64,000 nt of DNA from Dehalococcoidia bacterium (GTDB lineage Bacteria > Chloroflexota > Dehalococcoidia > Lucifugimonadales > QGNO01): NCBI GenBank assembly GCA_965261825.1, contig CBDHED010000002.1:18103-82102 (forward strand), read 5' to 3'. Shown here piece by piece: positions 10,137 to 64,000 of this stretch. The position numbers were made by a program, and so were the translations under genes. Below the pieces are notes generated by a model. It made no database searches, was not told the DNA's origin, and saw only the letters and a program-made list of their open reading frames with translations. Each line of letters starts with the position of its first letter. Position 1 is the first letter of the stretch.

Positions 10137-11834
10137 TCACCTCGTAGTAAAGGCGGGGTATTTCTTCAACTCGCCCAGCAGAAAGCGCCCCAACAGACGC
10201 GCCTGAACCTCCATGACCCGGCGGTAGCTTATGGAGTAGTTGAACAGAGGGTGCGTTATCAGGGTGTCCAGTCTGCGCTCGAATGCTCTGATAACGGCCT
10301 TGCGTCCGCCCTCAGTCAGGGCCACGGCCCCAGACCTGTGAATGAAGTCCCCCTCCTTCAACTCCGCGTTGTTGAAGAGGGTCAGCGTAGCGGAATCTGC
10401 AACTATTGAGCGGAACTCCTCGGCGAGATCAAGGGCCAGTGCGGGCCGTCCATACTTGGGCTGATGGTAAAAGCCCATGTACGGATCGAATCCCACCGCC
10501 ACCGCCGATATCAGGGCTTGTTTGATCAACATCGAGTAGAGGAAGGACAACACCGCGTTCACCGGGTCCCTGGGCGGGCGGCGGTTGCGCGTGCGGAAGT
10601 CGAATGTGGATCGATCAGATTTAATCAGAGAAGCAAAGTTGGCAAAGTAGACGCGGGCAGCGGCCCCTTCTATGCCGAGCAGTGTTTGGAGCGAATCCGC
10701 AGACATGGCGCTTTTGCAAAGCCGTTCAATCTCCTGTAGAGCAGCCTGGGGCGAGTCGGGATGGTTCCTGCGAAGCATGACTCTGCTGTTTCGTAGTTTG
10801 GCGACGACGATGTCCCTTGCTATGGAGAGGGACGTGAGGCTGTCGCCGGCCGCGCGGAACTGGGCTATCCGCAGTTCGACGTTCTTGTGGCCCATACTCC
10901 AAGTTATGCCCTTCAGCCAACCTCCGTAGGTGAAGTGGCAGACGGGTATTGCCCGGTCCAAGAGCTCGCGCGTGGCCTGTGAGGTGACCTGAGTATTGCC
11001 AAAGATGGAGAGGCTGGACACGTCAAGGAGCCTGGCGCGGGCGACGACCTCGCGTTTAACGCTGACGGTGAGATTGTCGCCGGATTTTCCCACGACCCCG
11101 CCCTGGGTGGTCACGTACATGGGCAGAGCATCATCCCGCGCTGGGGCCATGCGACGAACGTCATCCGGCTTTACCACATGCCGGCTGCCTTTGAGGAAGG
11201 TAACCTCGTCAGGGAGGCAAATGCCAACGAGGGAGCACCGGGGACACTTTGGGCTGTCCTCAAGCGGAGGCGGGATTTTGCCGCCAACGGCCATCGCACG
11301 GGCGGCGTCCAGCATCTCCAGCGTCAGCGCCACCAGCGCATCGTCGAAGGGAACCCGGACGCGGCGCTTTGAAGCAACGAAGTAGAGGATGCCCTCGTCG
11401 CATTGGTACCCGCTGGCGCGCAGGAGAAGACCCTGAACGCACAGTTGCACCCGCTCGGGATCGTAGGCGTTGCCAGGGACGTCGGGTACGGTTCCGCGCT
11501 TGTAGTCTATGGGCGTGGCAGCCGGTCCCTGGGCCTCGACCAAGTCGATGCGCGCAATGGCGCCCAGAGTCTCATCCGACAGGAGGACGGAGCGAGCATG
11601 GATCTTCTCATGTTCGTCATCCTCGTCGGATTCCGGTTCCCTGAGATCGCCGGATGGCTGATCGACGCGCCGGTGCTGAAATCGGCCGTCCAGCGTATCC
11701 TCGCTGTGGGCAAACTCGCCCTGCACCCACTCCATGTAGCTCAGTCTGGGACAGTAAACGAACTCGTTGAGCATCCTGGCAGGTATAAGCTCAGGAACTC
11801 CAACCCCCCGGCTCCCATCGTCTCGGTCATTCAA
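10137..11834 (-). CDS. cas4-cas1: Cas4-Cas1 fusion protein
   Basis: 565 aa. The N-terminal Cas4-like part has FVYCPRLSYMEW and the cysteine cluster CPRCSLVGIC. The C-terminal ~330 aa is Cas1-like. The fusion is characteristic of I-U/I-G. The TTG at 11834 is uncertain; the next ATG is 19 codons downstream. Confidence 0.9.
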   Translation of the reverse strand: MNDRDDGSRGVGVPELIPARMLNEFVYCPRLSYMEWVQGEFAHSEDTLDGRFQHRRVDQPSGDLREPESDEDDEHEKIHARSVLLSDETLGAIARIDLVEAQGPAATPIDYKRGTVPDVPGNAYDPERVQLCVQGLLLRASGYQCDEGILYFVASKRRVRVPFDDALVALTLEMLDAARAMAVGGKIPPPLEDSPKCPRCSLVGICLPDEVTFLKGSRHVVKPDDVRRMAPARDDALPMYVTTQGGVVGKSGDNLTVSVKREVVARARLLDVSSLSIFGNTQVTSQATRELLDRAIPVCHFTYGGWLKGITWSMGHKNVELRIAQFRAAGDSLTSLSIARDIVVAKLRNSRVMLRRNHPDSPQAALQEIERLCKSAMSADSLQTLLGIEGAAARVYFANFASLIKSDRSTFDFRTRNRRPPRDPVNAVLSFLYSMLIKQALISAVAVGFDPYMGFYHQPKYGRPALALDLAEEFRSIVADSATLTLFNNAELKEGDFIHRSGAVALTEGGRKAVIRAFERRLDTLITHPLFNYSISYRRVMEVQARLLGRFLLGELKKYPAFTTR

Positions 11835-14710
11835 GTCGGCAACTCCGGCTTCTTGGAACCGTGGATGGACGGGTCACTCGCCAGCAGTGTTCTCAGCCTA
11901 GCTACGGCGGCCACGGCGGCTTCGCCGAGACCGAGCAGGTCTCGAACGACGCGCTCATCCAGCTCAATTCGCACGGGATCTACGGCGCACTGATGGAAGG
12001 ACTGAAACTTACGGTCCCTGAAGTCTTGCCAGATTGCTAGGGCCTCGTCGAGTTGCCAGGCTTTCAGCTTTCGGACATCAAGCGTTGTGAGGTTCTCCAA
12101 CATTCCCTTGTTGCCTTGTCCTCTACCTTCCTGGGCACTGTTGGAATGATCAGCGTGGAGCAGCATTCCGAGCGTGGAGTTACACCAGAGGGCCAAAGCT
12201 ATCTCTAGCCGGGACCTGATGACAGGATCATCCTCGTGTATGGACAATGTGTGCCACGCTCTCACCCCCAATGTCTTTATACTGGTATATGTTGTCATTA
12301 TCCGTTGTGCGTTGTATCTGACGTCAACGGTGATGTGAAGCGTGCCAGCTTGCGACCATATGGGCATGTGGTCAATGCCAGGCTTAGGGACAAGCCTGGC
12401 ATTCGGCTCTGAGGACATGCTCTGATGAACTGATGAGTCCAGGCTCCATATGGCGGGGAACTGAGCGTCTCCGTTCCAGCCGTGGTATCCATGAAACACC
12501 CCAAGCGAGCCTCGAATTCTCCGGTGCTGCGGTCCCACGTTACAGACTTCATCCATAACGGCAACCGGAACGTGGCCTGCAACCTGAGCGCCGTCCTCCA
12601 TCCAAAGTTCACCGCGCTCAAGGGCGGATGCGACCTGGCCCGTCACGACTCGCCTCCACCGGGCGGCCGTCCAAGGTCCCTCCCCTACAGGGCCGTCCAC
12701 GACCTCACCCCATTGTTCGCCGCCAACCATCAGAGGACTGCCTCCAATCGGCGGCCCGTCCGACCGCAACACGGGTGATGAAGCCGCCGCGTTCACGGCC
12801 CGGACGAGAGCCAGCGCATCCGTTTCCTGGTAGGGCGCACGCCATAGGTTGACGAATCTCCCACGTCTGGGCGCATGTTCACCCTCCTGGAGTCGGCGGG
12901 CCACGAGCAGCGCCTCTGCGATGGCGGTGTCGTATGACATGGAGAGGAGCGCAGGGTCGTGGGACGACACCACGAACTCAATCTCGTACCTGGAGGCGAG
13001 CATTTGGCGGACCTCTCGCCAAGACTCGCCGAACACTGCCGTCACCGGCAGCACCAGTGCGATGCGCCCTCCGGGGCTGACCATTCGGTCCGCTAGGACC
13101 GTGAAGGACGAAGCATGTCCGGCCATCTGATTGGCCGACGTGCCCTTCAGCAGAGCAGATGTCCGCTTCGCTATGGCCTGCTGGGATTCCATGTCGCCCT
13201 CCGGTAGGGAGAACACACGGGACAGAGCTTCCTCTTTCCCGCCATCGCTGCCCCGCCGGGTGAACGGGGGATTGCTGATGACCAAGTTGGCCCTGGGAAG
13301 CTGTACGATGCTTCCAGCACCGGTGGTCGCTCCTATCTGCTCTTCGGTGGCGGAGAAGAAGGACTGGACTTCAGATGATTCCAACCAGTCCAGCGAGCCA
13401 AGATAGACAGCCCGGGATTCCTTCCCTTGAAGGTTCTCCTGCGTCTCCGTACCCAATCTGAGGGTGTGAAGCTGCATCTGCTCGAACCTCACCGATGGGG
13501 ACATTGCCGCAAGGGTTGCAGCTGTCAGGTGAATGGCAGCCTGCACCACGTCAGCCCCGACAATGACCTTCTCGACCAGGGCCTGGTGGAGAGACGAGTC
13601 ATCGGAATCGTCGGAAGCCACAGCTGCGTGGTTCTGGACTATCTGCCGGTAGGCGGCCATGAGGAGAGTCCCTGTCCCACACGCCGGGTCAACCACACGC
13701 AAGCTGGAAATTCCCTCTGAGTCGCTCCAAGCAACGTGGGACCATCTGGCTGGGTGCAGAGCTAGCCCCGCAAGGAGAGTGGATGCCGGGATGCTCGTAT
13801 AGAAGGCCGCCAGCAGCTTCCGCTCCGAGATCAGCCGGTTGAATATCCGCCCGGCCAGGTCGTGGCGTCCCACTGCTCCCATGCCCAGCAACGCAGCGGC
13901 AGTCCTGGCGCACTCGCCGAGCACCGACGCAGCTTCAACTTCGGAAAGCTCCTGAACCACGTCCCGCGCCATGCTGAATATGGGATAGTAGTCTATGCTC
14001 AGGATGTGCTCCCATACCTGCAACAGCGTCATGCGCGAGAAGCGCCCGTCTCGCATCGCCGCGCTCACCGGCTGGAACGCCACCTCGTTGCTGGCCAGCC
14101 GGTCCTGGAAGACCATGGCGTTGATGACGACCAGCGCGGCCATGTTGGCCGCCTCCTCGCTGGGATCGGCGTCAAAAATCTTCGAGACCCTCCCCAACGT
14201 CCCGGGGGAGGAGTAGAGCCGGGAACCGGCTCGCCTCGCTCCCTCATCGAGGACGTCAACTGCTTCGTCGAGGTCGCCAGCTGGCGGGGTTGTCCGGTGC
14301 ACCGTATCCCCAAGCTCTATTGCAGTCCCACTGAGCTTGGGGCCGGAAGTGCCGTCTATGCGCCATTCCTGCCACACCAGCGTCGCGCCTGCCATGCGCT
14401 CGTACAGGTGTTGCTGGCTCGTCGAGCGCAGCCTTCCCGGAACCGTGACGGCGAAGACGTTCTGAACCTTCTGACCGTCTATCTCCATACCAAGGCGGGA
14501 GAGGGCATCTGCTTCCACGGTCAAGGCAGGTTCAAGCTCGGTCTCGAGGATCACAGGACCTTCGGACAGACGAACGATGATGTCCGGACGCCTGCCGCCG
14601 TGCAGCGTCTCAGCAACTGCCGACAGGCCGCACCGCTCCCGGAGGAACCGGGCCAGCGCATCGTTGATGATGCTTTCGTGGCTGCGGTCTTTGCCATTGA
14701 CGGTTGTCAT
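11831..14710 (-). CDS. Restriction-modification-like N6-adenine DNA methyltransferase (type IIG/IIL-like single polypeptide)
   Basis: 959 aa. SAM motif I is VVDPACGTGTLL, catalytic motif IV is LVISNPPFTRRG, and an FYTS motif lies upstream. The N-terminal RRPDIIV...GPVILETELEP resembles a PD-(D/E)xK core but lacks the canonical Lys. A long C-terminal region is consistent with a target-recognition domain. Its stop overlaps the cas4/cas1 start region. Confidence 0.7.
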   Translation of the reverse strand: MTTVNGKDRSHESIINDALARFLRERCGLSAVAETLHGGRRPDIIVRLSEGPVILETELEPALTVEADALSRLGMEIDGQKVQNVFAVTVPGRLRSTSQQHLYERMAGATLVWQEWRIDGTSGPKLSGTAIELGDTVHRTTPPAGDLDEAVDVLDEGARRAGSRLYSSPGTLGRVSKIFDADPSEEAANMAALVVINAMVFQDRLASNEVAFQPVSAAMRDGRFSRMTLLQVWEHILSIDYYPIFSMARDVVQELSEVEAASVLGECARTAAALLGMGAVGRHDLAGRIFNRLISERKLLAAFYTSIPASTLLAGLALHPARWSHVAWSDSEGISSLRVVDPACGTGTLLMAAYRQIVQNHAAVASDDSDDSSLHQALVEKVIVGADVVQAAIHLTAATLAAMSPSVRFEQMQLHTLRLGTETQENLQGKESRAVYLGSLDWLESSEVQSFFSATEEQIGATTGAGSIVQLPRANLVISNPPFTRRGSDGGKEEALSRVFSLPEGDMESQQAIAKRTSALLKGTSANQMAGHASSFTVLADRMVSPGGRIALVLPVTAVFGESWREVRQMLASRYEIEFVVSSHDPALLSMSYDTAIAEALLVARRLQEGEHAPRRGRFVNLWRAPYQETDALALVRAVNAAASSPVLRSDGPPIGGSPLMVGGEQWGEVVDGPVGEGPWTAARWRRVVTGQVASALERGELWMEDGAQVAGHVPVAVMDEVCNVGPQHRRIRGSLGVFHGYHGWNGDAQFPAIWSLDSSVHQSMSSEPNARLVPKPGIDHMPIWSQAGTLHITVDVRYNAQRIMTTYTSIKTLGVRAWHTLSIHEDDPVIRSRLEIALALWCNSTLGMLLHADHSNSAQEGRGQGNKGMLENLTTLDVRKLKAWQLDEALAIWQDFRDRKFQSFHQCAVDPVRIELDERVVRDLLGLGEAAVAAVARLRTLLASDPSIHGSKKPELPT

Positions 14711-23124: not shown

Positions 23125-23907
23125 TCAGGAGTCGTCCTGCTCGTCCGAGATCGGGGAGGCGGCGTTTCCCCGGCTGTGCCGGAGACGGTAGCTGTCGCCG
23201 TTCATCTCCAGGATGTGGACGTGATGGGTGAGCCGGTCCAGCAGGGCTCCGGTCAGGCGTTCCGAGCCGAAGACCTCGGTCCACTCGTCGAAGGGCAGGT
23301 TGGTGGTGACCATGACGGAGCCCCGCTCGTAGCGCTGGCTGAAGACCTCGAAGAGGAGTTCTGCGCCGGTGGGGGACAGGGGCACGAAGCCCTGTTCGTC
23401 GATGATCAGCAGGCTGAGGCGGGACAGCTGCCGCTGCAGGTTGAGCAGCCGTTTCTCGTCCCGGGCCTCCATCAGCTCGTGGACCAGGGCGGCGGCCGTG
23501 GTGAAGCCCACGGACATTCCCCGCTGGCAGGCGGCGAGGCCAAGGCCCAGGGCGACGTGGGTCTTGCCGGTGCCGCTGTTGCCGACGGCGATGACGTTCT
23601 CCCGGCGCTGGATGTATTCGCAGCGGGCCAACTCCATCACCAGTTGTTTGTTCACCGAGGGGATGGCCGTAAAGTCGAAGGTGTCCAGGCTCTTGACGGC
23701 GGGGAAGCGGGCGGCGCGGATCCGGCGCTGCACCATGCGCTGGTGACGGTCGATGAGTTCCAGCTCGGCCAGGCGCAGCAGGTACTGGGGGTGGTCCACG
23801 CCCTCGGCGGCGCACTGGGCAGCCATCTTCCCGTACTCCCTCAGGAAGCTGGGCAGCTTCAGTTCCTTCAGGTGGTGTTCCAGGAGCAGGGTGGACCGCT
23901 GGTTCAC
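23125..23907 (-). CDS. istB: IS21 helper ATPase IstB
   Basis: Walker A GNSGTGKTH, Walker B LLIIDE, and ...LLDRLTHHVHILEMNGDSYR. GTG at 23907 follows GGGAGGG and overlaps the istA stop (GTGA). In the ORF track this is the tail of an artificial 759-aa fusion. Confidence 0.85.
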   Translation of the reverse strand: MNQRSTLLLEHHLKELKLPSFLREYGKMAAQCAAEGVDHPQYLLRLAELELIDRHQRMVQRRIRAARFPAVKSLDTFDFTAIPSVNKQLVMELARCEYIQRRENVIAVGNSGTGKTHVALGLGLAACQRGMSVGFTTAAALVHELMEARDEKRLLNLQRQLSRLSLLIIDEQGFVPLSPTGAELLFEVFSQRYERGSVMVTTNLPFDEWTEVFGSERLTGALLDRLTHHVHILEMNGDSYRLRHSRGNAASPISDEQDDS

Positions 23908-25404
23908 GCCGCCCTCCCTGGCAGCAGGGCCATGTAGTCCCCGGCGGAGGTGGTGTTCACGCTCACCCTGGGCAGGTAGGGGTACAGATCCAGGTCGAGA
24001 CGGGGCGGCCGTCCCTCCAGCCGGCAGAGCACCAGGTGCTTCACGGCGTCGAAGCTCAGCGCCCCCAGACGGAGGGAGTCCTGCACTGCGGCGTGCACCT
24101 CTTCCTGCCTGAAGCTCTCTAGGAGCCGCAGCACCTGGACGAACTCCCGCTTGCCCCTTGGTCCCATCCTGGACTCCAGGAGGCGGCGCAGCGTGGCAAA
24201 CTCCCCGGGCAGGTCCCACCCCCGCAGGGGTGCCGCCTGGTCCAGGGCGCCCGTCTTCCGCTCCAAGAGCGGCAGGTAGTGGATGGGGTCGAAGACGAAG
24301 TCGTCCCGCTGGTAGGAGCGGGGGTGTCGGGCGATGACCTCCGACCCGCAACTGATGACCACCCGGTCCACGTAGCCTTTTATCAGAACGTCGCGGTGAC
24401 CGTAGGCCACCGGGGCCGAGTAGTCGGTGGTCCGGTACCGCACCAGGGATAGGGAACTGACCCGGCCCGCCCGCTGGTCGCAGGCGTCGTAAGGCGCGGC
24501 CGGCAGGGGCAGCAGGGCCTCCAGGTCCCGCTCCATCCGCTGGCCGATACTCTCCGTGTGGCCCCCGGAGCAGGGCGTCCATGCGCGCCAGGCAGCGCCG
24601 CTCCAGGTGGGCGTTCAGCGCCTCGAAGCTCTCGAAGGACGGGATGGGCACCAGAAAGTTGCGGCGCACGTAGCCCACCATGCCCTCCACCTTCCCCTTG
24701 TCGTTGCCCTTCCCGGGCCTGCCGAACCGGCCCTCGAACAGGTAGTGGGACTGGAGCTCGGTGAAGGCCCGGGTGCGCTTTCGCCGGCCGTCCCCCAGGA
24801 TCCTGGCCACCGCCAGCCTGGTGTTGTCGTAGAGGATGCTCTGGGGCACCCCGCCCAGGAATGAAAACGCCGAGACATGGCCGTCCAGGAAGGCCTCGGT
24901 GGTCTCCGCGGGGTAGGCCTTGATGAAGCAGCCGTCGCTGTGGGGCAGGTCCAGGACGAAGTAGTGGGCCTTCTGCTCCACCCCGCCGATGATCACCCGG
25001 GCCTCACCGAAGTCGCACTGGGCATGGCCCGGGGCATGGGACAGCGGCACGAACATCTCCTTGGCCCGGCGGCGGCGCTCCCTGACGTAGTCCTTGACGA
25101 TGGTGTACTGGCCCGCAAACCCGTGCTCGTCGCGCAGCCGCTCGAAGATGCGCTTGGCGGTGTGGCGCTGCTTCCGGGGAACACCGAGGTCGCCCTCGAG
25201 GATGCGGTCGATGACGCCGGTGTAGGGCTCAAGCTTGGGCCTTCGGGGAGGAGTCTGCCGCCGGTAGCCCGGCGGCATCGAATAGGCCAGCATCTTGCGC
25301 ACCGTATCCCGGTGCAGACCGAACACTCGGGCAGCCTCCCGCGTGCTCATCCCGTCCACCATGCAGGCCCGGCGCACTCGAACGTACAGTTCCACCTTGT
25401 ACAT
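23904..25404 (-). pseudogene. istA: IS21 transposase IstA with a +1 frameshift in a G5 run
   Basis: The N-terminal frame (HTH, then the DDE region to ...ARMDALLRG) and the C-terminal frame (MERDLEALLPLPAAPYD...) join cleanly as LRGHTESIGQRMERD if one G is removed from the run at 24562-24566 (C5 on the + strand). The cause could be a real mutation or an indel sequencing error. Confidence 0.8.
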
Positions 25405-30342: not shown

Positions 30343-32133
30343 ATGGACGGAAGCCTTGTCAGTCTCAATGGGTTACTTACCGGGAACCAAATATTCGATA
30401 TCCCCGTTTATCAGAGGGGCTACGCCTGGGAAAGGAAGAATCTGGAGGACCTGTGGGAGGACCTCTATTACTTGGACTCCTCCAAGAAGCACTATTTCGG
30501 CACAGTGCTTCTCAAAGATTCGGAGAAGACCGCTCGAACCGCGCTAGCTACTTTGAAACGGTTCGACGTGATAGACGGCCAGCAGCGGCTTACTACTGTC
30601 CTGATACTGTTGCGAGAGATCATCTCGCAGTTGAAGGAGGTAAGTGCCAATGAGTTGCAGGGGGAGGTAGACGCTCTGGAGAGGAGCTATTTGAAAGATG
30701 GTGGTCATTACAAGCTGAACCCGCTAGGTGACGATGGTGAATTCTTCCACCATGTTGTCATTGACGGCAATGATTTTCTGGCCAGCGCCACTCGTACTCA
30801 CTCCCAGCGCCGTCTCACAGAGGCCAGAGCCTTCTTCAGAGAACGGCTCATCAGCGAGAAAGAACAACAGGCATCGGAATACCAGAACTTCCTAGTGCAA
30901 TTCAAGCGGAAGATCGACGAGCTTCAGCTCATACAGTACCAAGTCAACTCGGATGCGGATGCCATTCGCATTTTCGAAACCGTCAACGACAGAGGCCGTC
31001 CACTGAGCAATCTCGAGAAGACGAAGAGTTTCCTAATGCACACCTCATACCTTGGGATAGAAGACGATGACGTGGTGGCGGGCAGGCTCAAAGAGTTGAA
31101 CGGCCACTTTTCCAGAATATATCGGCACTTCGAAGACGTGAGCGGAACCAAACATATGGAACGCTTGCGCTTGGACGAGAATGATGTTCACCGTTACCAC
31201 TTCATAAATTACATATCACCCGGAGACGCTTCGTCGCGTCCTACCGACAGTCTCAAGGACCGCATCAGGGATAGGTTGCGACAAGACCCTGAAGAGTGTG
31301 TTGAGTATGCACTCACTTACGCCAAAGACCTAGAGAAGGCTTTCCTCGCAGTGAAGCACATTACCGAAGCCTACAGGGAGGATGAAGAGGGCAGGACACT
31401 GAGCAAGATTTTCATGATGGAGAGGATAGGGAACATCTTCCCGCTTTTGATAGCCTCCTGGCTGAGGTTCGGAGATGATGGCACACGCTTGGAGGAGGTC
31501 CTGAGACTTCTAGAAGCATTCGTCGTTCGCGTATACCTGGTGGGCGGATACCGGGGCCATACCGGGGCGTCCACATTAAGTGGAATAGCTCACAGAGTGC
31601 ATCAGAAGAGGCTGGACTACGACGGCCTGATTGGTGAATTGCAAGGGATGAATCGTTATTACCAGGACGACGGTCTGTTCAAGCGTTCCCTTGGTTGGGG
31701 CGACTTTTACGATCGCCTAGGCTCAAGAACCATTAGGTACTTGCTGAGCGAATATGAGATTCATCTCAGAACGAAGGTTGATGTGCCGTTGGCTGTCTCG
31801 ACACAGGAGAAAATCCTGTCGTCCGGCTACGAGGTGGAGCATATCTGGGCTCAGAATCCGTCTTATGAAATGGGCGTGGAGGAAGAATCGGAACACCGGC
31901 AGAATGTCCATCGGCTTGGTAACCTGACCATAGCTTCGCAGTCGTGGAACAAGAGCATGGGGAACAAGACATTCCAGGAAAAACGGTGGCAACCTGGAGA
32001 CATGCCTAGTTACTCGAATTCCAATTTGTTGGTACAGAAAGAGCTAGCTAAGCTTACCGCTTGGGATGTCGGAGCCATCAAGGATCGAGAGGCCGACATA
32101 GTGGAGTTCGCATTGCAAAGGTGGGCTGTATAG
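30343..32133 (+). CDS. GmrSD-like type IV restriction enzyme (DUF262 + DUF1524)
   Basis: The N-terminal DUF262 signatures are IPVYQRGYAWE and IDGQQRLTT. The C-terminal His-Me/HNH-like DUF1524 signatures are EVEHIWAQN and HRLGNLT...WNKSMGNK. Confidence 0.8.
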   Translation: MDGSLVSLNGLLTGNQIFDIPVYQRGYAWERKNLEDLWEDLYYLDSSKKHYFGTVLLKDSEKTARTALATLKRFDVIDGQQRLTTVLILLREIISQLKEVSANELQGEVDALERSYLKDGGHYKLNPLGDDGEFFHHVVIDGNDFLASATRTHSQRRLTEARAFFRERLISEKEQQASEYQNFLVQFKRKIDELQLIQYQVNSDADAIRIFETVNDRGRPLSNLEKTKSFLMHTSYLGIEDDDVVAGRLKELNGHFSRIYRHFEDVSGTKHMERLRLDENDVHRYHFINYISPGDASSRPTDSLKDRIRDRLRQDPEECVEYALTYAKDLEKAFLAVKHITEAYREDEEGRTLSKIFMMERIGNIFPLLIASWLRFGDDGTRLEEVLRLLEAFVVRVYLVGGYRGHTGASTLSGIAHRVHQKRLDYDGLIGELQGMNRYYQDDGLFKRSLGWGDFYDRLGSRTIRYLLSEYEIHLRTKVDVPLAVSTQEKILSSGYEVEHIWAQNPSYEMGVEEESEHRQNVHRLGNLTIASQSWNKSMGNKTFQEKRWQPGDMPSYSNSNLLVQKELAKLTAWDVGAIKDREADIVEFALQRWAV

Positions 32134-43735: not shown

Positions 43736-46700
43736 TCAACCTGCCTTGTTTGCCAACAATGCCCCGACTGCCTCCTCCACGGCGTTGCCCTCCACCTTCT
43801 CTCGCAGCCATTTCCGGATCTCCCGCCGGGCGATAGTGACGGTCACCTCGCCCCGGTCCTCGCGCAGCCGGGCCAATCGCTCAGCCGCTCCCTCCGCCGC
43901 CACTCTGCCAGCCTCGGATACGACGGCGTGTAACGAATCCTCGGGGTCGAACTCCGGGATGGGCAGCTTCCACAACTGCTTTTGCAAATCACGAGCACCG
44001 AATTGGCCTTTTGACATCAATGGTGTCACCATCTCATACAAGGCATCACTATTGATGATAGCCAGCAGGTAATAGGCTTCCTGTGCATCCCTACAGGTAA
44101 CCCAAAACAGCTTATAGTCAACGATAGCGTCGTCTTCGTGAAGCAGTGCGGCCGTTGGTGCTCCCCATCCACCGTACACTATCCGGATTTGCCTATCACC
44201 GGGTTCATGCCTCCATTCCAACTGCGACGAGAGCTTGCCGTAATAGTCCAACTGCCCCAACAGGTTCATTTTGGTAGCTGCCGCCCTGTTTGCCTCCCAC
44301 AGGTTGCTGACGACCCGCCAGCGGTCGCGCATCCTCTGGCTCAATCCGCCCAAGCGAATGCCGCCCACACCGTTCTTGCCGGTCGGTACTTCGTGTTCAC
44401 CACGTTTTAGAGGCAAGACCGCCCGTAATGGGTCGAGCGTCGCGTAAGGAACAATCGTCTCGCCCAGGTGAACGTCGAACACATGGGCAACTTCAACCGT
44501 CTGCTCGGATACAGTGGCCAAGTCGAGGCTCTTCCAAGGCTCTTTGTCCTGAGAGCCCCGTCGTGGGTTTACGGTGATGGTCTGACCAGCCTGAACGATT
44601 GCCGGATTCCTGGTCTCCTCCACGAAGAATAGAGGACGGGGATAGATGGTCGCACCATTTCTTGAGAAATGACCATAGGGAGAGATGCTAGCTGTTGATG
44701 TGTCAACTATGGCTACGCGTTTACGCCTATCAGAGTCCTCTCCTGGCTCACCCAACCAACGCTCTACCTGACCTGCCAGAGGCGTCGCCTTGCCGTCTTC
44801 ACCGCTGCGTCTGGCGAACACAACCGACGCCGGGACGGGAAAGAAGGTGTTGGGTTCCAGCCCCTCAAGGTCCCAAGCCATCTTGTGATCAAAGTCGACC
44901 GACAGTACACGATCCGCAGTGCGGTTCCTTCCTCTACCAACCGACTTCGTCTGCCATGCGCCCGTGCGCCATTTGGAATGTTGGCCCGTCTGAAGGGCGC
45001 TGTGGGGCATCACCATACCAATAACACCACTGTCTTTCAGGTATAGGTCGACGCACCGGGCAAAGAATAGGCTAGATATGTCTTGGTGGTTGGCGTGTCT
45101 GCCACCGACCCAAATGCCGTACAAATCCTTGCTCTGTCGTTCCAGCTCAGTCCGCAGCGTGCTGGCGGTGTTCCGATAGATCAGCCACGGCGGGTTGCCG
45201 ACGACCACGTCCACCTTGCTGCGGGATAGGGCCACGGGGCGCACCAGATTACGAGTGTAGTAGGCCCAGATGTGGTTGCGCCCCTCTGTGTGCAGCCGCT
45301 GCATGGCGGAGATGGTCTCCTGCAAGGTCTGCCGCTCCCCAGGTTCCGTGATCTGGTGGTCGTCGAGTGCGAGGTTGGGGTCGTCGCCCCTCTCAATGGC
45401 CTCTGCAATGTCGCTCATCAGCGCGTCGAAGGTCTCGGCCCGCTCCACCAGACTCACGGGAAAGACCAACTCCGTGTTCTCCTCATCCTCCACCTGAACG
45501 GTTACGTTGTGCTCGGCGAACATGTCACCGGTGCGAAACCGGAGTTTGAGGGCGTCTCCTAGGTAGACGGGAACGGTGACATTGGCTGCGAAGCCGTCCT
45601 CGACCGCCGCCTGTATCGCAGGCTGCGCCGCCAGCACCCATGCGGCCCTGGCCAAGTGCACGGCAACCGGGTGAACGTCGATGCCGGCGACGGAAAAGCG
45701 CAGCCACTCCAACACCTCTTTCGGGTCTAGGGAGGTCTCGTTGGCGGCCTCGATGAAGTGGTTGACCGCCTCGGCGACGAAGGTTCCAGACCCGCAGGCC
45801 GGATCGAGGACGTACTGGTCGAGGGGATCGGTCACCACTTCCCGCACGATGGCGCGCGCCAGCCAGTCCGGGGTGTAGTACTCTCCCAACTGGCGCCGCT
45901 CGTGGGGCGGTATGACGGTCTCGTAGAGGATGGCGGCAACATCGTTGGGAGCCTTCTGCCAGTCGAACCTAGCTATACGACGAGCCAGAGGTCTCAACAG
46001 GGGCAGCCCGCCTACCTCGGTGGGCCACGCAAAGAAGTCCGACTCCACGACTCCCTGAAGACCGGTCTTGCTTCGGAAGTCGCGGCCAAGCAGCAGGTCC
46101 GCCGGGTCGTTCTCCCCCAGTCGCTTGATGTCGCCGCCGAAGGAGGCTTGGACCACCATGCCGATGACGGCGCTCAGGTAGGTGTGTCGGACGAATAGGT
46201 CGTCCAGTTGAGCGCTTGACCTAGCGATCTCACCCAGGGCCGCCGTGAGCAGGTTCTCCCATAGCTGTCTCTTGACTCTGATGGTGCTGGAGTCGGTATG
46301 CTGGTCGTAGAGGACTTTGAGGGCTGCTATGTCCCGCTCATAGGATGGTGCCGTTGGGCCGAAGTGCTGTGCGATGGTAGAGCGGGACGGCTGCTTGTCT
46401 ACCTCTGCGGAGAGAGCATGGTCACGGAGCCATTCGAAGAGAGTAATCCAGCGGTCTGCGTCCTCCAACGTGAAGGCGTAGGGCATGGCCGTCCTGACCG
46501 GACCCGCGTTGGGCCAGCGCAGCAGCCATCGCTTGCCGTCCGTGAGGATACCCATGCGCATCCGGCCCTGCTCCCCTGACTGCTCCAGGTAGTCGTCGAG
46601 TTGCTGGACATACTCGGGATTGGGGTTGAAGCCTCCGGCGGTCCCGATCCGGCGCTTGAACTCTATGAATGTATCGAGAGCAGCGAGGTCCACGGCGCGG

Positions 46701-46885
46701 CGCGAGCCCTGTGCAGGCGGGTTCTCCTCAACGATGTCATCGGCCTTTACCAGTCCCGTGAGGATGAGGAAATCGCGCACAGCGCTGGTGATGTTCGCCT
46801 CGGGCTCGCCATTTTCATGCCGCCGCAGAATCTCAGCGGCAGCCTGGGCGTACCGGGCATCGTTGTAGTCAATCTGAATGGACAC
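43736..46885 (-). CDS. Type IIG/IIL-like restriction-modification enzyme (N-terminal PD-ExK nuclease-like domain + gamma-class N6-adenine methyltransferase + TRD)
   Basis: 1049 aa. AVDLAALDTFIEFKRR is a D-x8-E-x-K nuclease-like core. GEYYTPDWLA is present, motif I is VLDPACGSGTF, and motif IV is VVGNPPWLIYRN. The long C-terminal part ends in the ...LLAIINSDAL...LWKLPIPEFD pattern common in this enzyme class. Confidence 0.75.
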   Translation of the reverse strand: MSIQIDYNDARYAQAAAEILRRHENGEPEANITSAVRDFLILTGLVKADDIVEENPPAQGSRRAVDLAALDTFIEFKRRIGTAGGFNPNPEYVQQLDDYLEQSGEQGRMRMGILTDGKRWLLRWPNAGPVRTAMPYAFTLEDADRWITLFEWLRDHALSAEVDKQPSRSTIAQHFGPTAPSYERDIAALKVLYDQHTDSSTIRVKRQLWENLLTAALGEIARSSAQLDDLFVRHTYLSAVIGMVVQASFGGDIKRLGENDPADLLLGRDFRSKTGLQGVVESDFFAWPTEVGGLPLLRPLARRIARFDWQKAPNDVAAILYETVIPPHERRQLGEYYTPDWLARAIVREVVTDPLDQYVLDPACGSGTFVAEAVNHFIEAANETSLDPKEVLEWLRFSVAGIDVHPVAVHLARAAWVLAAQPAIQAAVEDGFAANVTVPVYLGDALKLRFRTGDMFAEHNVTVQVEDEENTELVFPVSLVERAETFDALMSDIAEAIERGDDPNLALDDHQITEPGERQTLQETISAMQRLHTEGRNHIWAYYTRNLVRPVALSRSKVDVVVGNPPWLIYRNTASTLRTELERQSKDLYGIWVGGRHANHQDISSLFFARCVDLYLKDSGVIGMVMPHSALQTGQHSKWRTGAWQTKSVGRGRNRTADRVLSVDFDHKMAWDLEGLEPNTFFPVPASVVFARRSGEDGKATPLAGQVERWLGEPGEDSDRRKRVAIVDTSTASISPYGHFSRNGATIYPRPLFFVEETRNPAIVQAGQTITVNPRRGSQDKEPWKSLDLATVSEQTVEVAHVFDVHLGETIVPYATLDPLRAVLPLKRGEHEVPTGKNGVGGIRLGGLSQRMRDRWRVVSNLWEANRAAATKMNLLGQLDYYGKLSSQLEWRHEPGDRQIRIVYGGWGAPTAALLHEDDAIVDYKLFWVTCRDAQEAYYLLAIINSDALYEMVTPLMSKGQFGARDLQKQLWKLPIPEFDPEDSLHAVVSEAGRVAAEGAAERLARLREDRGEVTVTIARREIRKWLREKVEGNAVEEAVGALLANKAG

Positions 46886-59773: not shown

Positions 59774-61219
59774 GTGGTTCGGACATCTTTCAAACCTGCT
59801 AGAAGGGGAGGCGACAGAGTGGTTACAGCAGAGCCGATCTCACTAACACTTGCGGAAGCAGCCTGCAAGATCAAGTCTCGCGAAATCTCACCCGTCGAGT
59901 TAACACAAGAGAGCTTAGACCGTATCGATGAGTTGCAGCCCAAGCTTAACGCGTTCATAACGATCTGCCCCGATCAGGCCCTTTCCGCTGCGCGAAAGGC
60001 CGAGAGGGATATCGCCGGAGGTAAATACCGTGGCCCTCTGCATGGTATTCCTTACGCGGTCAAGGACATCTATGCCAGCAAGGGAATCCGCTCCACAAGC
60101 GGGTCGAGAGTCTTTGCTGATCACTTCCCTGATCACGATAGCACGGCAGTTAGGAAGCTGAACTCCGCGGGAGCTGTGATGGTGGGAAAGAACAACACCA
60201 ACGAATTTGCCAGCGGCGGTGACGACAGCAGCTTTTACGGCCCCGTGCAGAATCCCTGGAAGCTGGGCTATACGCCGGGAGGTTCCTCTAGCGGTTCGGC
60301 AGCCTCGGTTGCTGCTGGGATGATTTTCGCATCCATGGGATCTTGTACCGGTGGCTCCGTTCGTGTACCTGGCTCTAACTGCAGCTTAGTGGGGCTGAAG
60401 CCCAGCTATGGACTGGTCAGCAGATATGGCATATTCCCATTGAGTTGGTCGTTGGATCATCCTGGTCTCCTCACCAGAACCGTTGAAGACTGTGCACTTC
60501 TACTCCAGACGGTAGCGGGTTACGACTCAAAGGACTCATCCTCCACCAGGGTGTCAATCCCGGATTATGCTTCCGCTCTCACCAACGATATCCGCGGGAT
60601 CAGAGTGGGGGTTCCAAGGGAACTCCGTGAAGGCACATCAGCAGAGGTGGACCTCTTAGTAGAGAAGGCATTATCAGTGCTGAGGGAACTGGGCGCTTCA
60701 GTTGAAGAGGTTTCGGTGCCTATAACCGACAACTACGCCACGACTGCAGGCAACGTGATCACGTGGAGTGAGGCCGGCCAGATTCATACACCGTATCTCC
60801 AACACCTGCATGAATACTCCATTGGTGTTAGAGAAAAGGTTCAGGTGGGCCTTGTCATCCCCTCTAACGACTACCACAAGGCCCAAAAGATGCGGCGTAA
60901 GGTTCAAGAGGAGCTGACTCAGATGCTGAATCGAGTAGATGTACTGGTCGGCCCAATCCAGAGGACTCCACCTGGAACCCTCCAGCTCAGCGTGGCGACC
61001 GGTGCTGCTACAGGGATGGCTACTCAACGGAGCTTCACCCGGCCGTTTAACTTGACAGGCATGCCCGCGGTCAGCGTGCCTTGCGGCTTTTCTCCAGAGG
61101 GCCTGCCGGTAGGATTGCAGATAGCTGGCAGACTTTTTGACGATTCCACTGTGCTCCGCGTGGCCCACGCTTATGAGCAGGCGACCCCGTGGCACGATAT
61201 GCATCCATCGATATCCTGA
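59774..61219 (+). CDS. Amidase (amidase-signature family, GatA-like)
   Basis: GGSSSGSAASVAAG is the amidase signature, with upstream LHGIPYAVKD. The exact start is uncertain. Confidence 0.85.
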   Translation: MVRTSFKPARRGGDRVVTAEPISLTLAEAACKIKSREISPVELTQESLDRIDELQPKLNAFITICPDQALSAARKAERDIAGGKYRGPLHGIPYAVKDIYASKGIRSTSGSRVFADHFPDHDSTAVRKLNSAGAVMVGKNNTNEFASGGDDSSFYGPVQNPWKLGYTPGGSSSGSAASVAAGMIFASMGSCTGGSVRVPGSNCSLVGLKPSYGLVSRYGIFPLSWSLDHPGLLTRTVEDCALLLQTVAGYDSKDSSSTRVSIPDYASALTNDIRGIRVGVPRELREGTSAEVDLLVEKALSVLRELGASVEEVSVPITDNYATTAGNVITWSEAGQIHTPYLQHLHEYSIGVREKVQVGLVIPSNDYHKAQKMRRKVQEELTQMLNRVDVLVGPIQRTPPGTLQLSVATGAATGMATQRSFTRPFNLTGMPAVSVPCGFSPEGLPVGLQIAGRLFDDSTVLRVAHAYEQATPWHDMHPSIS

Positions 61220-61229
61220 GGAGGCGCAC

Positions 61230-61427
61230 ATGCCCAAAATGTCGAAAGAAACCGTTAGTGCCCTGATAACGCTTGGCGGCGCCGATGCCACACCTCAAGA
61301 GATTGAGGCAACTACAAAGCTTTATAACACTCTCGCCGAGCAACTAGAGGAAGTCCCGTCCGACTCACTGGAAGAGGTCGAACCTCACTTCATCCAGCCC
61401 ACAAGGAGAGGACGCAGCAGCTCGTAG
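61230..61427 (+). CDS. Small hypothetical protein downstream of the amidase
   Basis: ATG at 61230 follows GAGGAGG. The 65-aa acidic product is unrecognised. Confidence 0.35.
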   Translation: MPKMSKETVSALITLGGADATPQEIEATTKLYNTLAEQLEEVPSDSLEEVEPHFIQPTRRGRSSS

Positions 61428-61584
61428 CGTAATAATCCCAGGTGGCGGCATCTAGGCTCAGAGAGCTTTACAAGAAGCATGGTCAGGATACATAAGATAA
61501 GGTGATTATCCCTTAACGTCACGTAATGAGTGACTGCTATGGCTATCGCCATACTCTCAGTGTATCAGCTAGGAGGCATGGAAA

Positions 61585-62019
61585 TTAAAATGGTAGGTCT
61601 CCGGTGCCAAGTGGCAAGGCATCGTTTTCAGGTACTCTCTTCGCCAAGTCCCACATGCCACGACCAACATTCACAAAGCGATCATCTATGCTTAGGTATG
61701 ACCCCACACTATTCACCGGATTCTTGCCACCAACATGGATGCCCTGCTGCTGGATGCGACCATGAATTTCCGAGCGGTGAAGTGGTCCCCCCTCGCCATG
61801 TAGGATGTCATATATAGCAGTGCCAATCCTTTCAGCGAAGGAATCTTTGTTGAGAGTATCTTGGGATTGACCATTACGCTCAATGACCCTTATCACAACG
61901 TGTAGGCTTTCAACCTCTTTGTCGATCTCGCGTTTCTTTGTTTCTAAGTCTTTGACCAAGGCGCGTAGGCCACGCAATATGGATTCATTGCCCATTGTCG
62001 TTCTCCATTGTGTTGCCAA
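61585..62019 (-). CDS. HARE-HTH (winged-helix) domain protein with an N-terminal coiled coil
   Basis: AIYDILHGEGGPLHRSEIHGRI...GKNPVNSVGSYLSIDDRFVNVGRGMWDL matches the HARE-HTH pattern (..P...eI...i......tP..t....l....rF.rvgrG.w.L). Confidence 0.45.
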   Translation of the reverse strand: MATQWRTTMGNESILRGLRALVKDLETKKREIDKEVESLHVVIRVIERNGQSQDTLNKDSFAERIGTAIYDILHGEGGPLHRSEIHGRIQQQGIHVGGKNPVNSVGSYLSIDDRFVNVGRGMWDLAKRVPENDALPLGTGDLPF

Positions 62020-62089
62020 AAGCCACTGTACTGTTTCCTCACCGTATTTGTAGACGCTAGTGTCCCAGTGTTCATACTGTGAAATCAGA

Positions 62090-62172
62090 TGGGGATGGTG
62101 GGATTCGAACCCACATGCCGCTGGCGGCGCTAGTTTTCAAGACTAGTGTGTCTACCGTTCCACCACATCCCC
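62090..62172 (-). tRNA. Class II tRNA, anticodon UGA (Ser by anticodon) with tRNA-Leu-like body
   Basis: The reverse complement is GGGGATGTGGTGGAACGGTAGACACACTAGTCTTGAAAACTAGCGCCGCCAGCGGCATGTGGGTTCGAATCCCACCATCCCCA. It folds into a cloverleaf with a 7-bp acceptor stem, a 3-bp D stem, anticodon stem CTAGT/ACTAG, and loop CTTGAAA. The extra arm is 15 nt, the T arm is GTGGG-TTCGAAT-CCCAC, and the discriminator is A. No CCA is encoded. Confidence 0.8.
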
Positions 62173-62175
62173 AAT

Positions 62176-62267
62176 GTTGAGGGGCGCGTCACACGCTAGC
62201 CCAGTCAAACGGTTACAACGTTTGGTTGGATTTAGGCTACTGCCCAGTCAAGGCCGCGCCCCTCAAC
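62176..62267. repeat. 13-bp perfect inverted repeat (GTTGAGGGGCGCG ... CGCGCCCCTCAAC) between the transposase and the tRNA
   Basis: The arms are at 62176-62188 and 62255-62267, and the 66-nt spacer contains GCCCAGTCAA twice. It lies immediately 5' of the tRNA on the - strand. Confidence 0.8.
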
Positions 62268-62344
62268 CGCATTATAAATGCGTGTATTTGGATAAGCAAG
62301 ATGGCAAACGGCAAAGAACAGCGTGGTTTAACTAAAGAGGCGTT

Positions 62345-63232
62345 TCAGAAGTTACTTCGTAAGGCCGCGCAACCTATACGGAAGCCACCCGGCCCAGAAG
62401 TTGAACGAACATCGGAGTCTCTGTCGCTCCGGTGATTGAACCTATAGACGTAGGAGTCCAAGTAGCCCTGTAGATGCTTTGGACTCACGGCATGGTGAAC
62501 GCCGTCGATGCCCCGCTTGACGTTGCTCCACATCCCTTCCACGTTGTTAGTGTGAGCCCTACCCACTACGTATTCCTTCGCGCTGTGCTGGACGGTTTCA
62601 TGGGCATATCCCAGGCTGGTCAATCGGTTGTAGCTAAGCATCTCATCAGTGTAGACCGTCTGGCCTTGTGGGATGTGCGCTTGAATCATGGGTAGAAGGG
62701 TGCGAGCCTTCACATCTGGCACAACCTTGACGACAGCCGACCCTCCGCGTTCCACCATACCGGCAACGATAGTCTTGCCTTCTGCCCCACGCCCGCGCTT
62801 CCCTGGTCGCTTCCCGCCCACGTAGGTTTCATCGACCTCAATCTCCCCGAACAGGACAATATCGTCCTGCGCCATGATGGATCGGATTTGCTTGAACATG
62901 CGCCATGCGGTCTTGTAAGTGACTCCAACCTCACGCTCAAGCTGCTTGGCGGATATGCCCGTTCTGGTGGATGCCATGAGGAACATGGCATGGAACCAAG
63001 ACCGGAGGGAAGTGGAAGACTTGTGGAAGATAGTGTCGGCTGTGGGGGAGACGTGAGAAGCACAGAATTCACAGCTATAGACCTTCCGGCCTGTGATTCG
63101 AAAGTGCTTGGTGATACGCTGACACTGAGAGCAGGTTATCCCTTCAGGCCATCGGGCGTTCTTCAGGAACTCAAGGCAAGAGTCTTCATCGGGGAACTGG
63201 GCATTGAACTGTTTGATTGTGTACTTGTCCAT
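62345..63232 (-). CDS. IS1595-family transposase
   Basis: The N-terminal zinc ribbon is CSQCQ...CEFC. The DDE region has ...VEVDETYVGG...VYTDEMLSYN...HTNNVEGMWSNVKR.., the typical IS1595 pattern. Confidence 0.85.
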   Translation of the reverse strand: MDKYTIKQFNAQFPDEDSCLEFLKNARWPEGITCSQCQRITKHFRITGRKVYSCEFCASHVSPTADTIFHKSSTSLRSWFHAMFLMASTRTGISAKQLEREVGVTYKTAWRMFKQIRSIMAQDDIVLFGEIEVDETYVGGKRPGKRGRGAEGKTIVAGMVERGGSAVVKVVPDVKARTLLPMIQAHIPQGQTVYTDEMLSYNRLTSLGYAHETVQHSAKEYVVGRAHTNNVEGMWSNVKRGIDGVHHAVSPKHLQGYLDSYVYRFNHRSDRDSDVRSTSGPGGFRIGCAALRSNF

Positions 63233-63298
63233 GCCCCAATACTACCAGATAAAGTACGTGCTGTCAAGGGATAATCACCTAAGATAAAAGCTGAGATC

Positions 63299-63808
63299 AT
63301 GACCCCGGCTTCGTTTTCACCGTTCGGGGAGGTCATCGACGCGTCGGACATCCCTGATGAGATTTCTCCGGTTGATTTTCAAGGAGGCGGATTGCGGTTC
63401 AACGCAACTCTTTTGCCCTATCTCGGCCTGGAGTTTAGCCAGATGGAGCAACACTTCCACGTTACTCAGGCTTTCTTGCCGCTCAGCGGGCCGCCAGCGG
63501 TCGTTGCAGTTGCCGCTCCCACAGACCAAAACGACCCTGATGCGATTCCAGGACCCGAACAATGCCACGCTTTTCTTATAGACGGGACCATGGGTTATAT
63601 TCTGAAGAAGGGGACATGGCACTCTGACCGGTTGCCACTCTATCCGCCAAGCACCAAAATGGTAATCCTCACCGATAACGAGACAAACTTAGACCTCAGC
63701 AGGTATGGCTCTATACGGACTCCCGAGAGCGAACGTGGAGGGTGGAAGATCAACCGCATAGTCGATTACCGGACAAAGCTTGGGGTTACCTTCGAGATAG
63801 TTCTTTAG
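63299..63808 (+). CDS. Ureidoglycolate lyase-like cupin protein (tentative)
   Basis: SFSPFGEVID...HFHVTQAFLPLSG...KGTWH resembles the ureidoglycolate lyase/hydrolase family. Confidence 0.4.
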   Translation: MTPASFSPFGEVIDASDIPDEISPVDFQGGGLRFNATLLPYLGLEFSQMEQHFHVTQAFLPLSGPPAVVAVAAPTDQNDPDAIPGPEQCHAFLIDGTMGYILKKGTWHSDRLPLYPPSTKMVILTDNETNLDLSRYGSIRTPESERGGWKINRIVDYRTKLGVTFEIVL

Positions 63809-64000
63809 CGGCTCCCACACTTGTGACGGCGTAGCCTTGTGGCCTAAGCGGGCCAGCAGCTATAAAGTCTGCAATGCTAATCTAGACGTGGATTGTGGCC
63901 TTCGTGCCTATCCTAGGCTCCGACAATTTCCTCCATTACCCGAAGCAGGTTCTCCCCAAGCACCTTTCTTACTGTGTCCTCCGATTGGCCTCGGCGTAGC

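Follow-up and report, generated by a model that had tools for sequence, protein, structure and literature searches.

Which amino acid would a tRNA carry if its body is of the leucine type and its anticodon belongs to serine, and what would such a tRNA be doing inside a transposon? Natural tRNAs whose identity elements and anticodon disagree are rare and mostly unexplained. The sole tRNA gene of a 64-kb stretch of DNA from a Dehalococcoidia bacterium (contig CBDHED010000002.1; 64,000 nucleotides (nt), called the window throughout) raises both questions, since it joins a leucine-like body to the anticodon UGA and lies within an insertion sequence (IS) of the IS1595 family. An earlier reading of the bare sequence, here called the original prediction, had proposed that the gene is either a mobile mistranslating tRNA or a decaying copy of tRNA-Leu. 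In the present study we compared the tRNA with genuine leucine and serine tRNAs, delimited the element that carries it and examined related elements in other genomes. The reading that we favour, tentatively and at somewhat less than even confidence, is that the gene may encode a mobile missense-decoding tRNA charged by leucyl-tRNA synthetase (LeuRS).

Results

The tRNA joins a leucine-type body to a serine-type anticodon arm

ARAGORN calls the gene at 62088-62173 as tRNA-Ser with anticodon tga, and the Rfam tRNA model (RF00005) matches it over model positions 1-71 of 71 with 63.5 bits (gathering threshold 29; E 2e-11). Its cloverleaf reads GGGGATG/TG/GTG/G/AACGGTAG/A/CAC/A/CTAGT/CTTGAAA/ACTAG/CGCCGCCAGCGGCAT/GTGGG/TTCGAAT/CCCAC/CATCCCC/A. 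The stems are canonical, with a 7-bp acceptor and a 5-bp T stem (a 7/5 cloverleaf), and CCA is not encoded. The loop CTTGAAA inside the CTAGT/ACTAG stem gives the anticodon UGA, as the original prediction had read it and as ARAGORN agrees. The other features that it had listed were each recovered from the sequence, namely the D region TGGTGGAACGGTAGACAC, the pair U11:A24, the discriminator A73 and a variable region of 15 nt. The latter contains a 4-bp stem, and its last base is U, giving A15:U48.

For a reference set we used the nine distinct class II tRNA genes for leucine (five) and serine (four) of the annotated E. coli K-12 genome and compared them with the window tRNA region by region. 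Positions 8-26, TGGTGGAA-CGGTAGACACA, are those of E. coli leuZ, a tRNA-Leu(UAA), TGGTGGAATCGGTAGACACA, minus one base of the D loop; the one-base-shorter loop is also present in a bona fide tRNA-Leu(UAA) gene of locus L043. Over positions 1-26 the window tRNA is identical to the five leucine tRNAs at 19-23 of 27-29 aligned positions, compared with 14-17 of 27 for the four serine tRNAs. The discriminator A73 is that of all E. coli leucine tRNAs; all four distinct serine tRNAs have G73. Furthermore, a serine-type D arm (C11:G24 with a GAGYGG..TGAA loop) is absent from the window tRNA, which has U11:A24 and a leucine-type loop. In E. coli, LeuRS reads A73, A15:U48 and the G18G19/A20a layout of the D loop, and ignores the anticodon and the extra arm (Giegé and Eriani, PMC9976931).

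The anticodon arm tells a different story from the body. It is identical to that of E. coli serT at 13 of 17 positions and to that of leuZ at 7 of 17. The anticodon-stem pair is U31:A39, as in serT and serU; the pair is A31:U39 in leuZ and in all the bona fide tRNA-Leu(UAA) genes examined (3 intact and about 27 split). The anticodon itself falls outside those used for leucine (NAG, YAA). Serine-like features also occur elsewhere in the molecule, in the pairs G1:C72 and G2:C71 (the acceptor opens with GG, paired with CC) and in G30:C40.

Judged by these features, the window tRNA is a mosaic whose body carries leucine determinants and whose decoding arm is of the serine(UGA) type. The leucine-like body joined to a serine anticodon, which the original prediction had pointed to, is thus borne out by A73, A15:U48 and the G18G19/D-loop layout together with UGA. 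Its derivation of the gene from tRNA-Leu(UAA) by a single A35 to G change holds for the loop, since that change yields CTTGAAA, but fails for the gene, whose stem has U31:A39 and not A31:U39. We therefore regard the gene as a mosaic and not a one-step A35G mutant, because the body is leucine-like while the anticodon arm is serine-like with U31:A39. The T loop TTCGAAT was considered as a mark of serine tRNAs and dropped, as bona fide tRNA-Leu(UAA) genes of other bacteria carry TTCGAAT too.

The tRNA is cargo of an IS1595-family element

A pair of 26-nt inverted repeats (61500-61525 and 63255-63280, 88% complementary) has only these two copies in the window, with 0 expected by chance. Because the inverted repeats are flanked by a perfect 8-bp direct repeat, we place the limits of the element at 61501-63279, a length of 1,779 bp. 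It is inserted between an amidase gene and a ureidoglycolate-lyase-like open reading frame (ORF). In the orientation of the transposase, the order is inverted repeat with a promoter-like site, transposase, a 44-aa antisense ORF, a promoter-like site, leader, tRNA, near-palindrome, a 136-aa ORF and the second inverted repeat. The transposase has 7,725 homologues, the nearest named of which are labelled Chloroflexota and are 66-69% identical; its last approximately 28 residues are without homology to relatives.

IS1595 elements with passenger genes are known (ISfinder groups such as ISNwi1 and ISNha5); their DDE transposase bears an N-terminal zinc ribbon, their ends are short inverted repeats bordered by an 8-bp target duplication, and the passenger DNA behind the transposase varies. 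By its gene content and ends, the element described here is an IS1595-family insertion sequence that moves as a unit with its tRNA cargo. The original prediction had supposed the tRNA gene to be mobile, and its position between the inverted repeats and the target duplication agrees with this. A megablast search of 60000-64000 against plasmids and phages gave no match, and PADLOC found nothing meaningful in the cargo proteins. Look-ups by exact protein sequence for the transposase, the 136-aa ORF and a PTE gene of the window returned no record.

Related elements conserve the tRNA and vary its anticodon

Sibling elements were collected through homologues of the 136-aa ORF, so that the sample was chosen irrespective of anticodon. 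The order transposase, leader, tRNA slot, ORF was present in every ORF-homologue context examined. Related IS copies with the same inverted repeats, in which the transposase DNA is 77-87% identical over the first approximately 950 bp, carry different cargo and no tRNA; the cargo of close IS relatives consists of unrelated proteins (DUF1828, DUF433, SLATT-like). Since related copies differ so much in cargo, the region downstream of the transposase is exchangeable.

The sibling L091 (ORF 79% identical) has a window-like tRNA with UGA, its own inverted repeats and an 8-bp target duplication of its own, TATTGGAA. Between the window and L091, sequence identity is higher in the tRNA (91.6%) and the leader (93.9%) than in the ORF (84%), the transposase (79%) and the spacer (68%). 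The anticodon arms are identical at 17 of 17 positions, and in the acceptor stem A5:U68 is replaced by G5:C68, a compensatory change. Since the tRNA is more conserved than the transposase and the stem change is compensatory, the comparison argues for purifying selection, and we conclude from it that the tRNA is kept under selection. The suggestion that the gene is a decaying tRNA-Leu copy is contradicted by the same data, as the tRNA ranks among the best-conserved stretches of the element and the changes in its stems are compensatory.

In L090 (ORF 88% identical) the same tRNA body has the loop CTTGCAA and hence the anticodon UGC, for the alanine codon GCA. In L083, which is 84% identical over 1.8 kb, the slot is occupied by a different tRNA-like sequence (2834-2907), whose acceptor and T arm are well formed but whose D and anticodon arms are poor, and which is called as a tRNA by neither ARAGORN nor Rfam. 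The replacement in L083 is precise, with homology to the window restarting directly after the discriminator base, which suggests a cassette-like swap of the tRNA in its slot. More distant elements (ORF 47-50%) have two tRNAs. The first, of class I, is Arg-like and contains TTGCTA in a loop. The second has G3:U70 and A73, the alanine signature, with the anticodon CCA (Trp; L092-94) or UGA (L084-89); these G3:U70 tRNAs lie at L092:2335-2407, L094:147-219 and L084:2842-2912, and the tRNA-like sequence of L084-89 has a poor D arm. Since in sister elements UGC occurs on the same body and CCA or UGA on G3:U70/A73 tRNAs, the IS family appears to pair tRNAs of anticodon-independent identity classes with shifting non-cognate anticodons.

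The arrangement recurs in other IS1595 lineages

A combined query of the leucine-type D arm and CTTGAAA was scanned against one genome per species, 185,579 species in all, and returned 56 loci. About 20 are intact Leu-body tRNAs with UGA. The notion that all 56 are hybrids was rejected, as about 27 are tRNA-Leu(UAA) genes interrupted after U34 by an insert of approximately 215-250 nt, with the 3' exon downstream. None of the 56 loci is titled Chloroflexota, the phylum label of the nearest named transposase homologues. Genuine tRNA-Ser(UGA) genes evidently do not share the leucine-type D arm. The original prediction had allowed that the true tRNA-Ser genes of the lineage might be built in the same way, and the scan found no such gene. 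A narrower scan of metagenomes gave 19 more loci, and a scan of viral contigs gave 2.

The split tRNA-Leu(UAA) genes come mostly from metagenome-assembled genomes (MAGs) of alpha-, beta- and gammaproteobacteria (L008-L013, L016-L018, L020, L025, L027, L029, L035-L038, L044, L046, L049, L050, L053, L054, L057, L058, L061, L062). The position after U34 is the classic site of the tRNA-Leu group I intron; the Rfam group I intron model scored below threshold in the 4 split loci examined. A further group from Thermoleophilia and Actinomycetes MAGs (L014, L015, L021, L041, L045, L056, L063) consists of Leu(UAA)-type genes with the leucine-type anticodon stem GGGGA...TCCTC, in which the loop either carries the anticodon UGA or is 8 nt long. 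They resemble simple A35G mutants of the bldA-type tRNA, or else errors of assembly.

By tblastn, IS1595 transposases only 26-44% identical to that of the window were found directly upstream of Leu-body tRNAs in L039 (Methylocystis), L047 (Sphingobium), L060 (chromosome of Jiella pelagia), L066 and L072/L079, with a degraded copy in L048. Directly downstream of the tRNA, a small coiled-coil/winged-helix ORF is present in L024, L042, L047, L060, L066, L067, L069, L071, L076, L077 and L082. On these comparisons, the order transposase, Leu-body tRNA(UGA), coiled-coil/winged-helix ORF is recurrent in three IS1595 lineages, that of the window, a second metagenomic lineage and the Alphaproteobacteria. 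The ORF families of the window and of the Alphaproteobacteria are collinear with a weak profile match (hhalign probability 4.9%), and we treat them as analogous and possibly distantly related. The alphaproteobacterial version is without the 98-nt leader according to the covariance model. Terminal repeats were looked for in the alphaproteobacterial elements and none was found, and tblastn of their ORF against plasmids gave no match.

A class I companion tRNA of 73-77 nt with the anticodon GCU (Ser AGY) accompanies some of these genes (L060:3522-3594, L024:5795-5868 and L068:2871-2944). Bacterial tRNA-Ser(GCU) is normally a class II tRNA. In the alphaproteobacterial loci L060 and L024 the companion comes after both the winged-helix ORF and a hairpin resembling a terminator; on the metagenomic contig L068 it lies 9 nt past the Leu-body tRNA.

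We also compared 29 distinct tRNAs with a Leu-type body and a non-leucine anticodon, which the parser admitted if 6 of the 7 acceptor pairs and 4 of the 5 T-stem pairs could form. Both stems show 100% pairing in these tRNAs, with between 1 and 5 kinds of base pair at each position. None of the 29 departs from A73 or U48. The invariance of U8, G9, G13 and A22 is not evidence, because the parser fixed those positions.

The leader and the winged-helix ORF accompany the tRNA

The features of the element are listed in Table 1. The leader folds into a perfect 13-bp outer stem (62176-62188/62255-62267) around two or three inner helices. RNAalifold across six relatives predicts 28 pairs, 10 of them with compensatory changes, and a covariance model of the leader recognises 12 loci, all in related IS copies, at 70-108 bits. 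The leader belongs to no Rfam family, and a search of the whole element against Rfam at a permissive E-value matched only the tRNA. The position of the promoter-like site before the leader is kept in L083, L090 and L091, and analogous sites are found in L084 and L092.

Table 1. Coordinates of the features of the tRNA-carrying element and its target site within the window.
Feature	Position	Strand	Basis
Target-site duplication, copy 1 (TAAGATAA)	61493..61500		identical 8-mer directly outside both inverted repeats
Terminal inverted repeat, cargo end, 25 nt (GGTGATTATCCCTTAACGTCACGTA)	61501..61525		inverted-repeat search
136-aa ORF (MGNESILRGL...GDLPF), N-terminal coiled coil and C-terminal HARE-HTH winged helix	61585..61995	-	Pfam, predicted structure
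Near-palindrome (GACGCTAGTGTC) between tRNA and 136-aa ORF	62053..62064		read from sequence
Class II tRNA, Leu-type body with Ser(UGA)-type anticodon arm, anticodon UGA	62090..62172	-	ARAGORN, Rfam, cloverleaf parse
Structured leader, 98 nt, ends 3 nt before tRNA position 1	62173..62270	-	inverted repeat, RNAalifold, covariance model
Promoter-like site TTGCTT-17 nt-TATAAT, would start transcription at the leader	62271..62299	-	read from sequence; 3/6 in -35 hexamer, below scanner threshold
44-aa ORF antisense to 3' end of transposase gene (MANGKEQRGLTKEAFQKLLRKAAQPIRK...)	62301..62435	+	conserved in L083, L090, L091
IS1595-family DDE transposase, 295 aa	62345..63232	-	Pfam DDE_Tnp_IS1595 1.2e-44; Zn_ribbon_IS1595 (N-terminal) 3.3e-12
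Promoter-like site for transposase, inside inverted repeat, TTGACA-17-TAGTAT with TG	63239..63267	-	10/12 consensus matches; consensus match only
Terminal inverted repeat, transposase end, 25 nt	63255..63279		inverted-repeat search
Target-site duplication, copy 2 (TAAGATAA)	63280..63287		perfect 8-bp direct repeat

The 136-aa ORF is preceded by a GGAGAA ribosome-binding site and matches Pfam HARE-HTH (PF05066) with E 2.6e-6 and 28.2 bits against a cut-off of 25.9. Its 28 homologues share the invariant pattern PLHR...GIHVGG..PVNS.GSYLS.D.RF.N.GRGMW. The AlphaFold model (mean predicted local distance difference test 77.7) has a helix at residues 3-42 followed by a winged helix of the order helix-helix-helix-strand-strand, and its best matches in the PDB are Z-alpha, Rok and the N-domain of RNA polymerase delta. 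The near-palindrome GACGCTAGTGTC becomes the perfect palindrome GACGCTAGCGTC in the siblings L083 and L090 and is flanked by weak -35-like and -10-like hexamers; it may be a candidate autoregulatory operator.

No Pfam match was obtained for the 44-aa antisense ORF, which lies opposite the non-homologous 3' tail of the transposase. The more distant L084 and L092, in which the large ORF is only about 50% identical, have a related motif, ATREEV..AM.KAAKPV, and the shared pattern is T[KR]E..(L/M)..KAA(Q/K)P(I/V).

Other features of the window

Outside the element, the window resembles a defence island, with a Cas3 helicase-nuclease, an MmeI-like methyltransferase/restriction protein, a GmrSD endonuclease and an Eco57I-like methylase (2892-5315, 11831-14710, 30343-32133 and 43736-46885). 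Between 16000 and 26000 the G+C content is 64-70%, compared with about 58% elsewhere, and an ORF with an IS21 IstB-type ATPase domain lies at 23125-25404. Because the IstB-type ORF falls within a block of raised G+C, the block is probably another inserted element.

Discussion

If the window tRNA is a mobile missense decoder, it would be transcribed from the promoter of the cargo module itself, behind the 98-nt leader, and matured by RNase P together with the 3' end-processing and CCA-adding enzymes. LeuRS, blind to the anticodon, would then charge it. The charged tRNA would compete with the genuine tRNA-Ser(UGA) and place leucine at UCA, and possibly at other UCN codons, at a low or regulated level, and the winged-helix protein would be the likely regulator of the cargo module. 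Three observations speak for a role in decoding. The tRNA bodies found in the IS family belong to the types (Leu-type and G3:U70-type) that synthetases recognise without reading the anticodon, the anticodon arm is tuned to its anticodon and not inherited from tRNA-Leu(UAA), and the full tertiary core is retained.

Several observations weigh against this reading. The anticodon differs among the closest relatives (UGA, UGA and UGC) and the slot of L083 holds a degenerate tRNA-like sequence, so that UCA decoding cannot be essential to the element. Several companion tRNAs of related elements have weak anticodon or D arms. Nothing in the genes of the element points to recoding: the ORF has a single TCA, at codon 99, for a conserved serine that the siblings encode as TCC, and the only TCA of the transposase sits in its non-homologous tail. 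We considered whether the element's own genes need the tRNA or recode UCA, and rejected this, since TCA is absent or at conserved serine positions. The constancy of UGA outside the window's lineage lends no support, because both large scans required UGA and so inflated it. Additionally, the serine-like pairs G1:C72, G2:C71 and G30:C40 leave some charging by seryl-tRNA synthetase (SerRS) possible, and similar irregular tRNAs were charged without decoding in E. coli (Mukai et al. 2017, PMC5389517).

The rival that we take most seriously, although we think it unlikely, is a tRNA-shaped RNA module that does not decode and whose anticodon is free to drift. Such a module might be an RNase P or 3'-processing mark that releases the leader, stabilises the message of the downstream ORF, or does both. 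It might instead serve in regulation or as a decoy, for instance of a toxin that targets tRNAs, or act as an uncharged-tRNA signal. A fold that is conserved while its anticodon varies between UGA and UGC would be expected of it, as would the poor D and anticodon arms in L083 and the poor D arm in L084-89. In all cases the tRNA has a conserved promoter and leader on one side and the ORF on the other, all on one strand; the leader stops 3-9 nt short of tRNA position 1 and equals the tRNA in conservation. There are precedents in the E. coli small RNA 3'ETS-leuZ, which is cut from a tRNA precursor (E. coli genome annotation), and in the irregular tRNAs that were charged but did not decode (PMC5389517). 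However, a processing handle needs the acceptor/T minihelix only, whereas the leucine-type D arm, the tertiary nucleotides and an anticodon arm tuned to Ser(UGA) are all kept. A structural role also leaves unexplained why the bodies are of the anticodon-blind types, Leu-type and G3:U70-type. Furthermore, the alphaproteobacterial version is without the leader, and the 136-aa ORF appears to own a weak promoter and palindrome.

The remaining explanations are less probable still. It strikes us as improbable that the gene is functionally a normal tRNA-Ser(UGA) of unusual build, which SerRS would charge by way of the extra arm and G1:C72/G2:C71 and which would boost the reading of rare UCA codons. 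Such a tRNA would account for the serine-type anticodon arm, the pairs G1:C72, G2:C71 and G30:C40 and the paired extra arm; TCA is indeed rare in the ORFs of the window (5.1 per 1000 codons), and E. coli SerRS can do without G73 on in vitro transcripts (PMC9976931). Against it stand A73, U11:A24, A15:U48 and the leucine-type D loop, which separate leucine from serine tRNAs in E. coli, where the switch of identity from leucine to serine requires A73 to become G73 (PMC9976931). No genuine tRNA-Ser(UGA) with this D arm was met in the 185,579 species genomes, and L090 has the same body with an alanine anticodon, a mismatch under either charging. Far less probable is a decaying hitch-hiker, in which a host tRNA-Leu(UAA) captured by the IS would be drifting and A35G would be a neutral lesion. 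In its favour, some MAGs of Actinomycetes and Thermoleophilia (L015, L041, L056, L063) do have plain A35G versions whose anticodon stem is of the leucine type, and related IS copies differ widely in what they carry downstream of the transposase. The comparison of the window with L091 largely refutes this account, since the coding and non-coding DNA around the tRNA has diverged further than the tRNA itself, whose stems have changed in a compensatory way; moreover, the anticodon stem is not of the Leu(UAA) type, and the arrangement recurs with transposases only 26-44% identical. Finally, that the host lineage has reassigned UCA (or UCN) to leucine, with the tRNA as its cognate decoder, is scarcely credible and has nothing for it beyond the tRNA itself. 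Codon 99 of the ORF is a TCA at a conserved serine, TCC in the siblings; the gene lies on a recently inserted IS, outside the core tRNA set; and the anticodon varies between siblings.

The window tRNA is not the first in which the identity elements of one amino acid are combined with the anticodon of another. The tRNAProX/tRNAProA genes of Streptomyces and Kitasatospora (PMC10404621; review PMC11415595) are likewise rare accessory genes of unclear role. These tRNAs differ in having proline identity and Ala, Thr or Asn anticodons and in not being reported as insertion-sequence cargo, whereas the window has a Leu-type body in an IS1595 transposon. Similarly, the allo-tRNAs and irregular tRNA polycistrons of Acidobacteria and soil metatranscriptomes (Mukai et al. 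2017, PMC5389517) put diverse non-cognate anticodons on anticodon-independent bodies, in their case of Ser, Ala or His identity. They too are clustered, include class-I-like tRNAs with GCU, and lie near transposon-related and toxin-antitoxin genes. In contrast to the window tRNA, with its 7/5 cloverleaf and Leu-type determinants, the allo-tRNAs have 8/4 or 9/3 acceptor/T branches and mostly Ser identity, and no defined module of IS1595 transposase, winged-helix ORF and leader was described in that work. Serine and leucine features are also mixed in the class II tRNA-Ser(CAG) of CUG-clade yeasts, whose codon is decoded ambiguously as serine or leucine; there, however, a serine body serves a leucine codon, and the tRNA is eukaryotic, chromosomal and lineage-fixed and not transposon-borne. 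A search of full-text literature covering few subscription journals found no tRNA as IS1595 cargo, no family of Leu-body/UGA tRNAs, no such leader RNA and no transposon-encoded tRNA of this arrangement, which is absence of evidence only.

The window tRNA offers a testable system, with a mobile vehicle, conserved partner genes and a partner RNA, and relatives in at least two named bacterial groups and a further metagenomic lineage. If it is charged with leucine, a transposon would be spreading a Ser to Leu misreading between genomes, and its siblings an Ala to Leu or Trp/Ser to Ala misreading. The finding bears on the origin of codon reassignments, on adaptive or selfish mistranslation and on tRNA annotation, in which such genes are now called 'tRNA-Ser', and it offers anticodon-independent tRNA scaffolds ready for code engineering. 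If the tRNA is not a decoder, the family would represent a new non-translational use of tRNA-shaped RNAs by insertion sequences. A broader proposal, possible but doubtful at present, is that a rare and widespread IS1595 family uses anticodon-blind tRNAs as a programmable module, altered by anticodon mutation or cassette swap and controlled by the winged-helix protein and the leader, to impose regulated codon-specific mistranslation, translational toxicity or addiction on its host. Were this true, these elements would carry a new kind of transposon cargo and would act as a natural, mobile perturbation of the genetic code.

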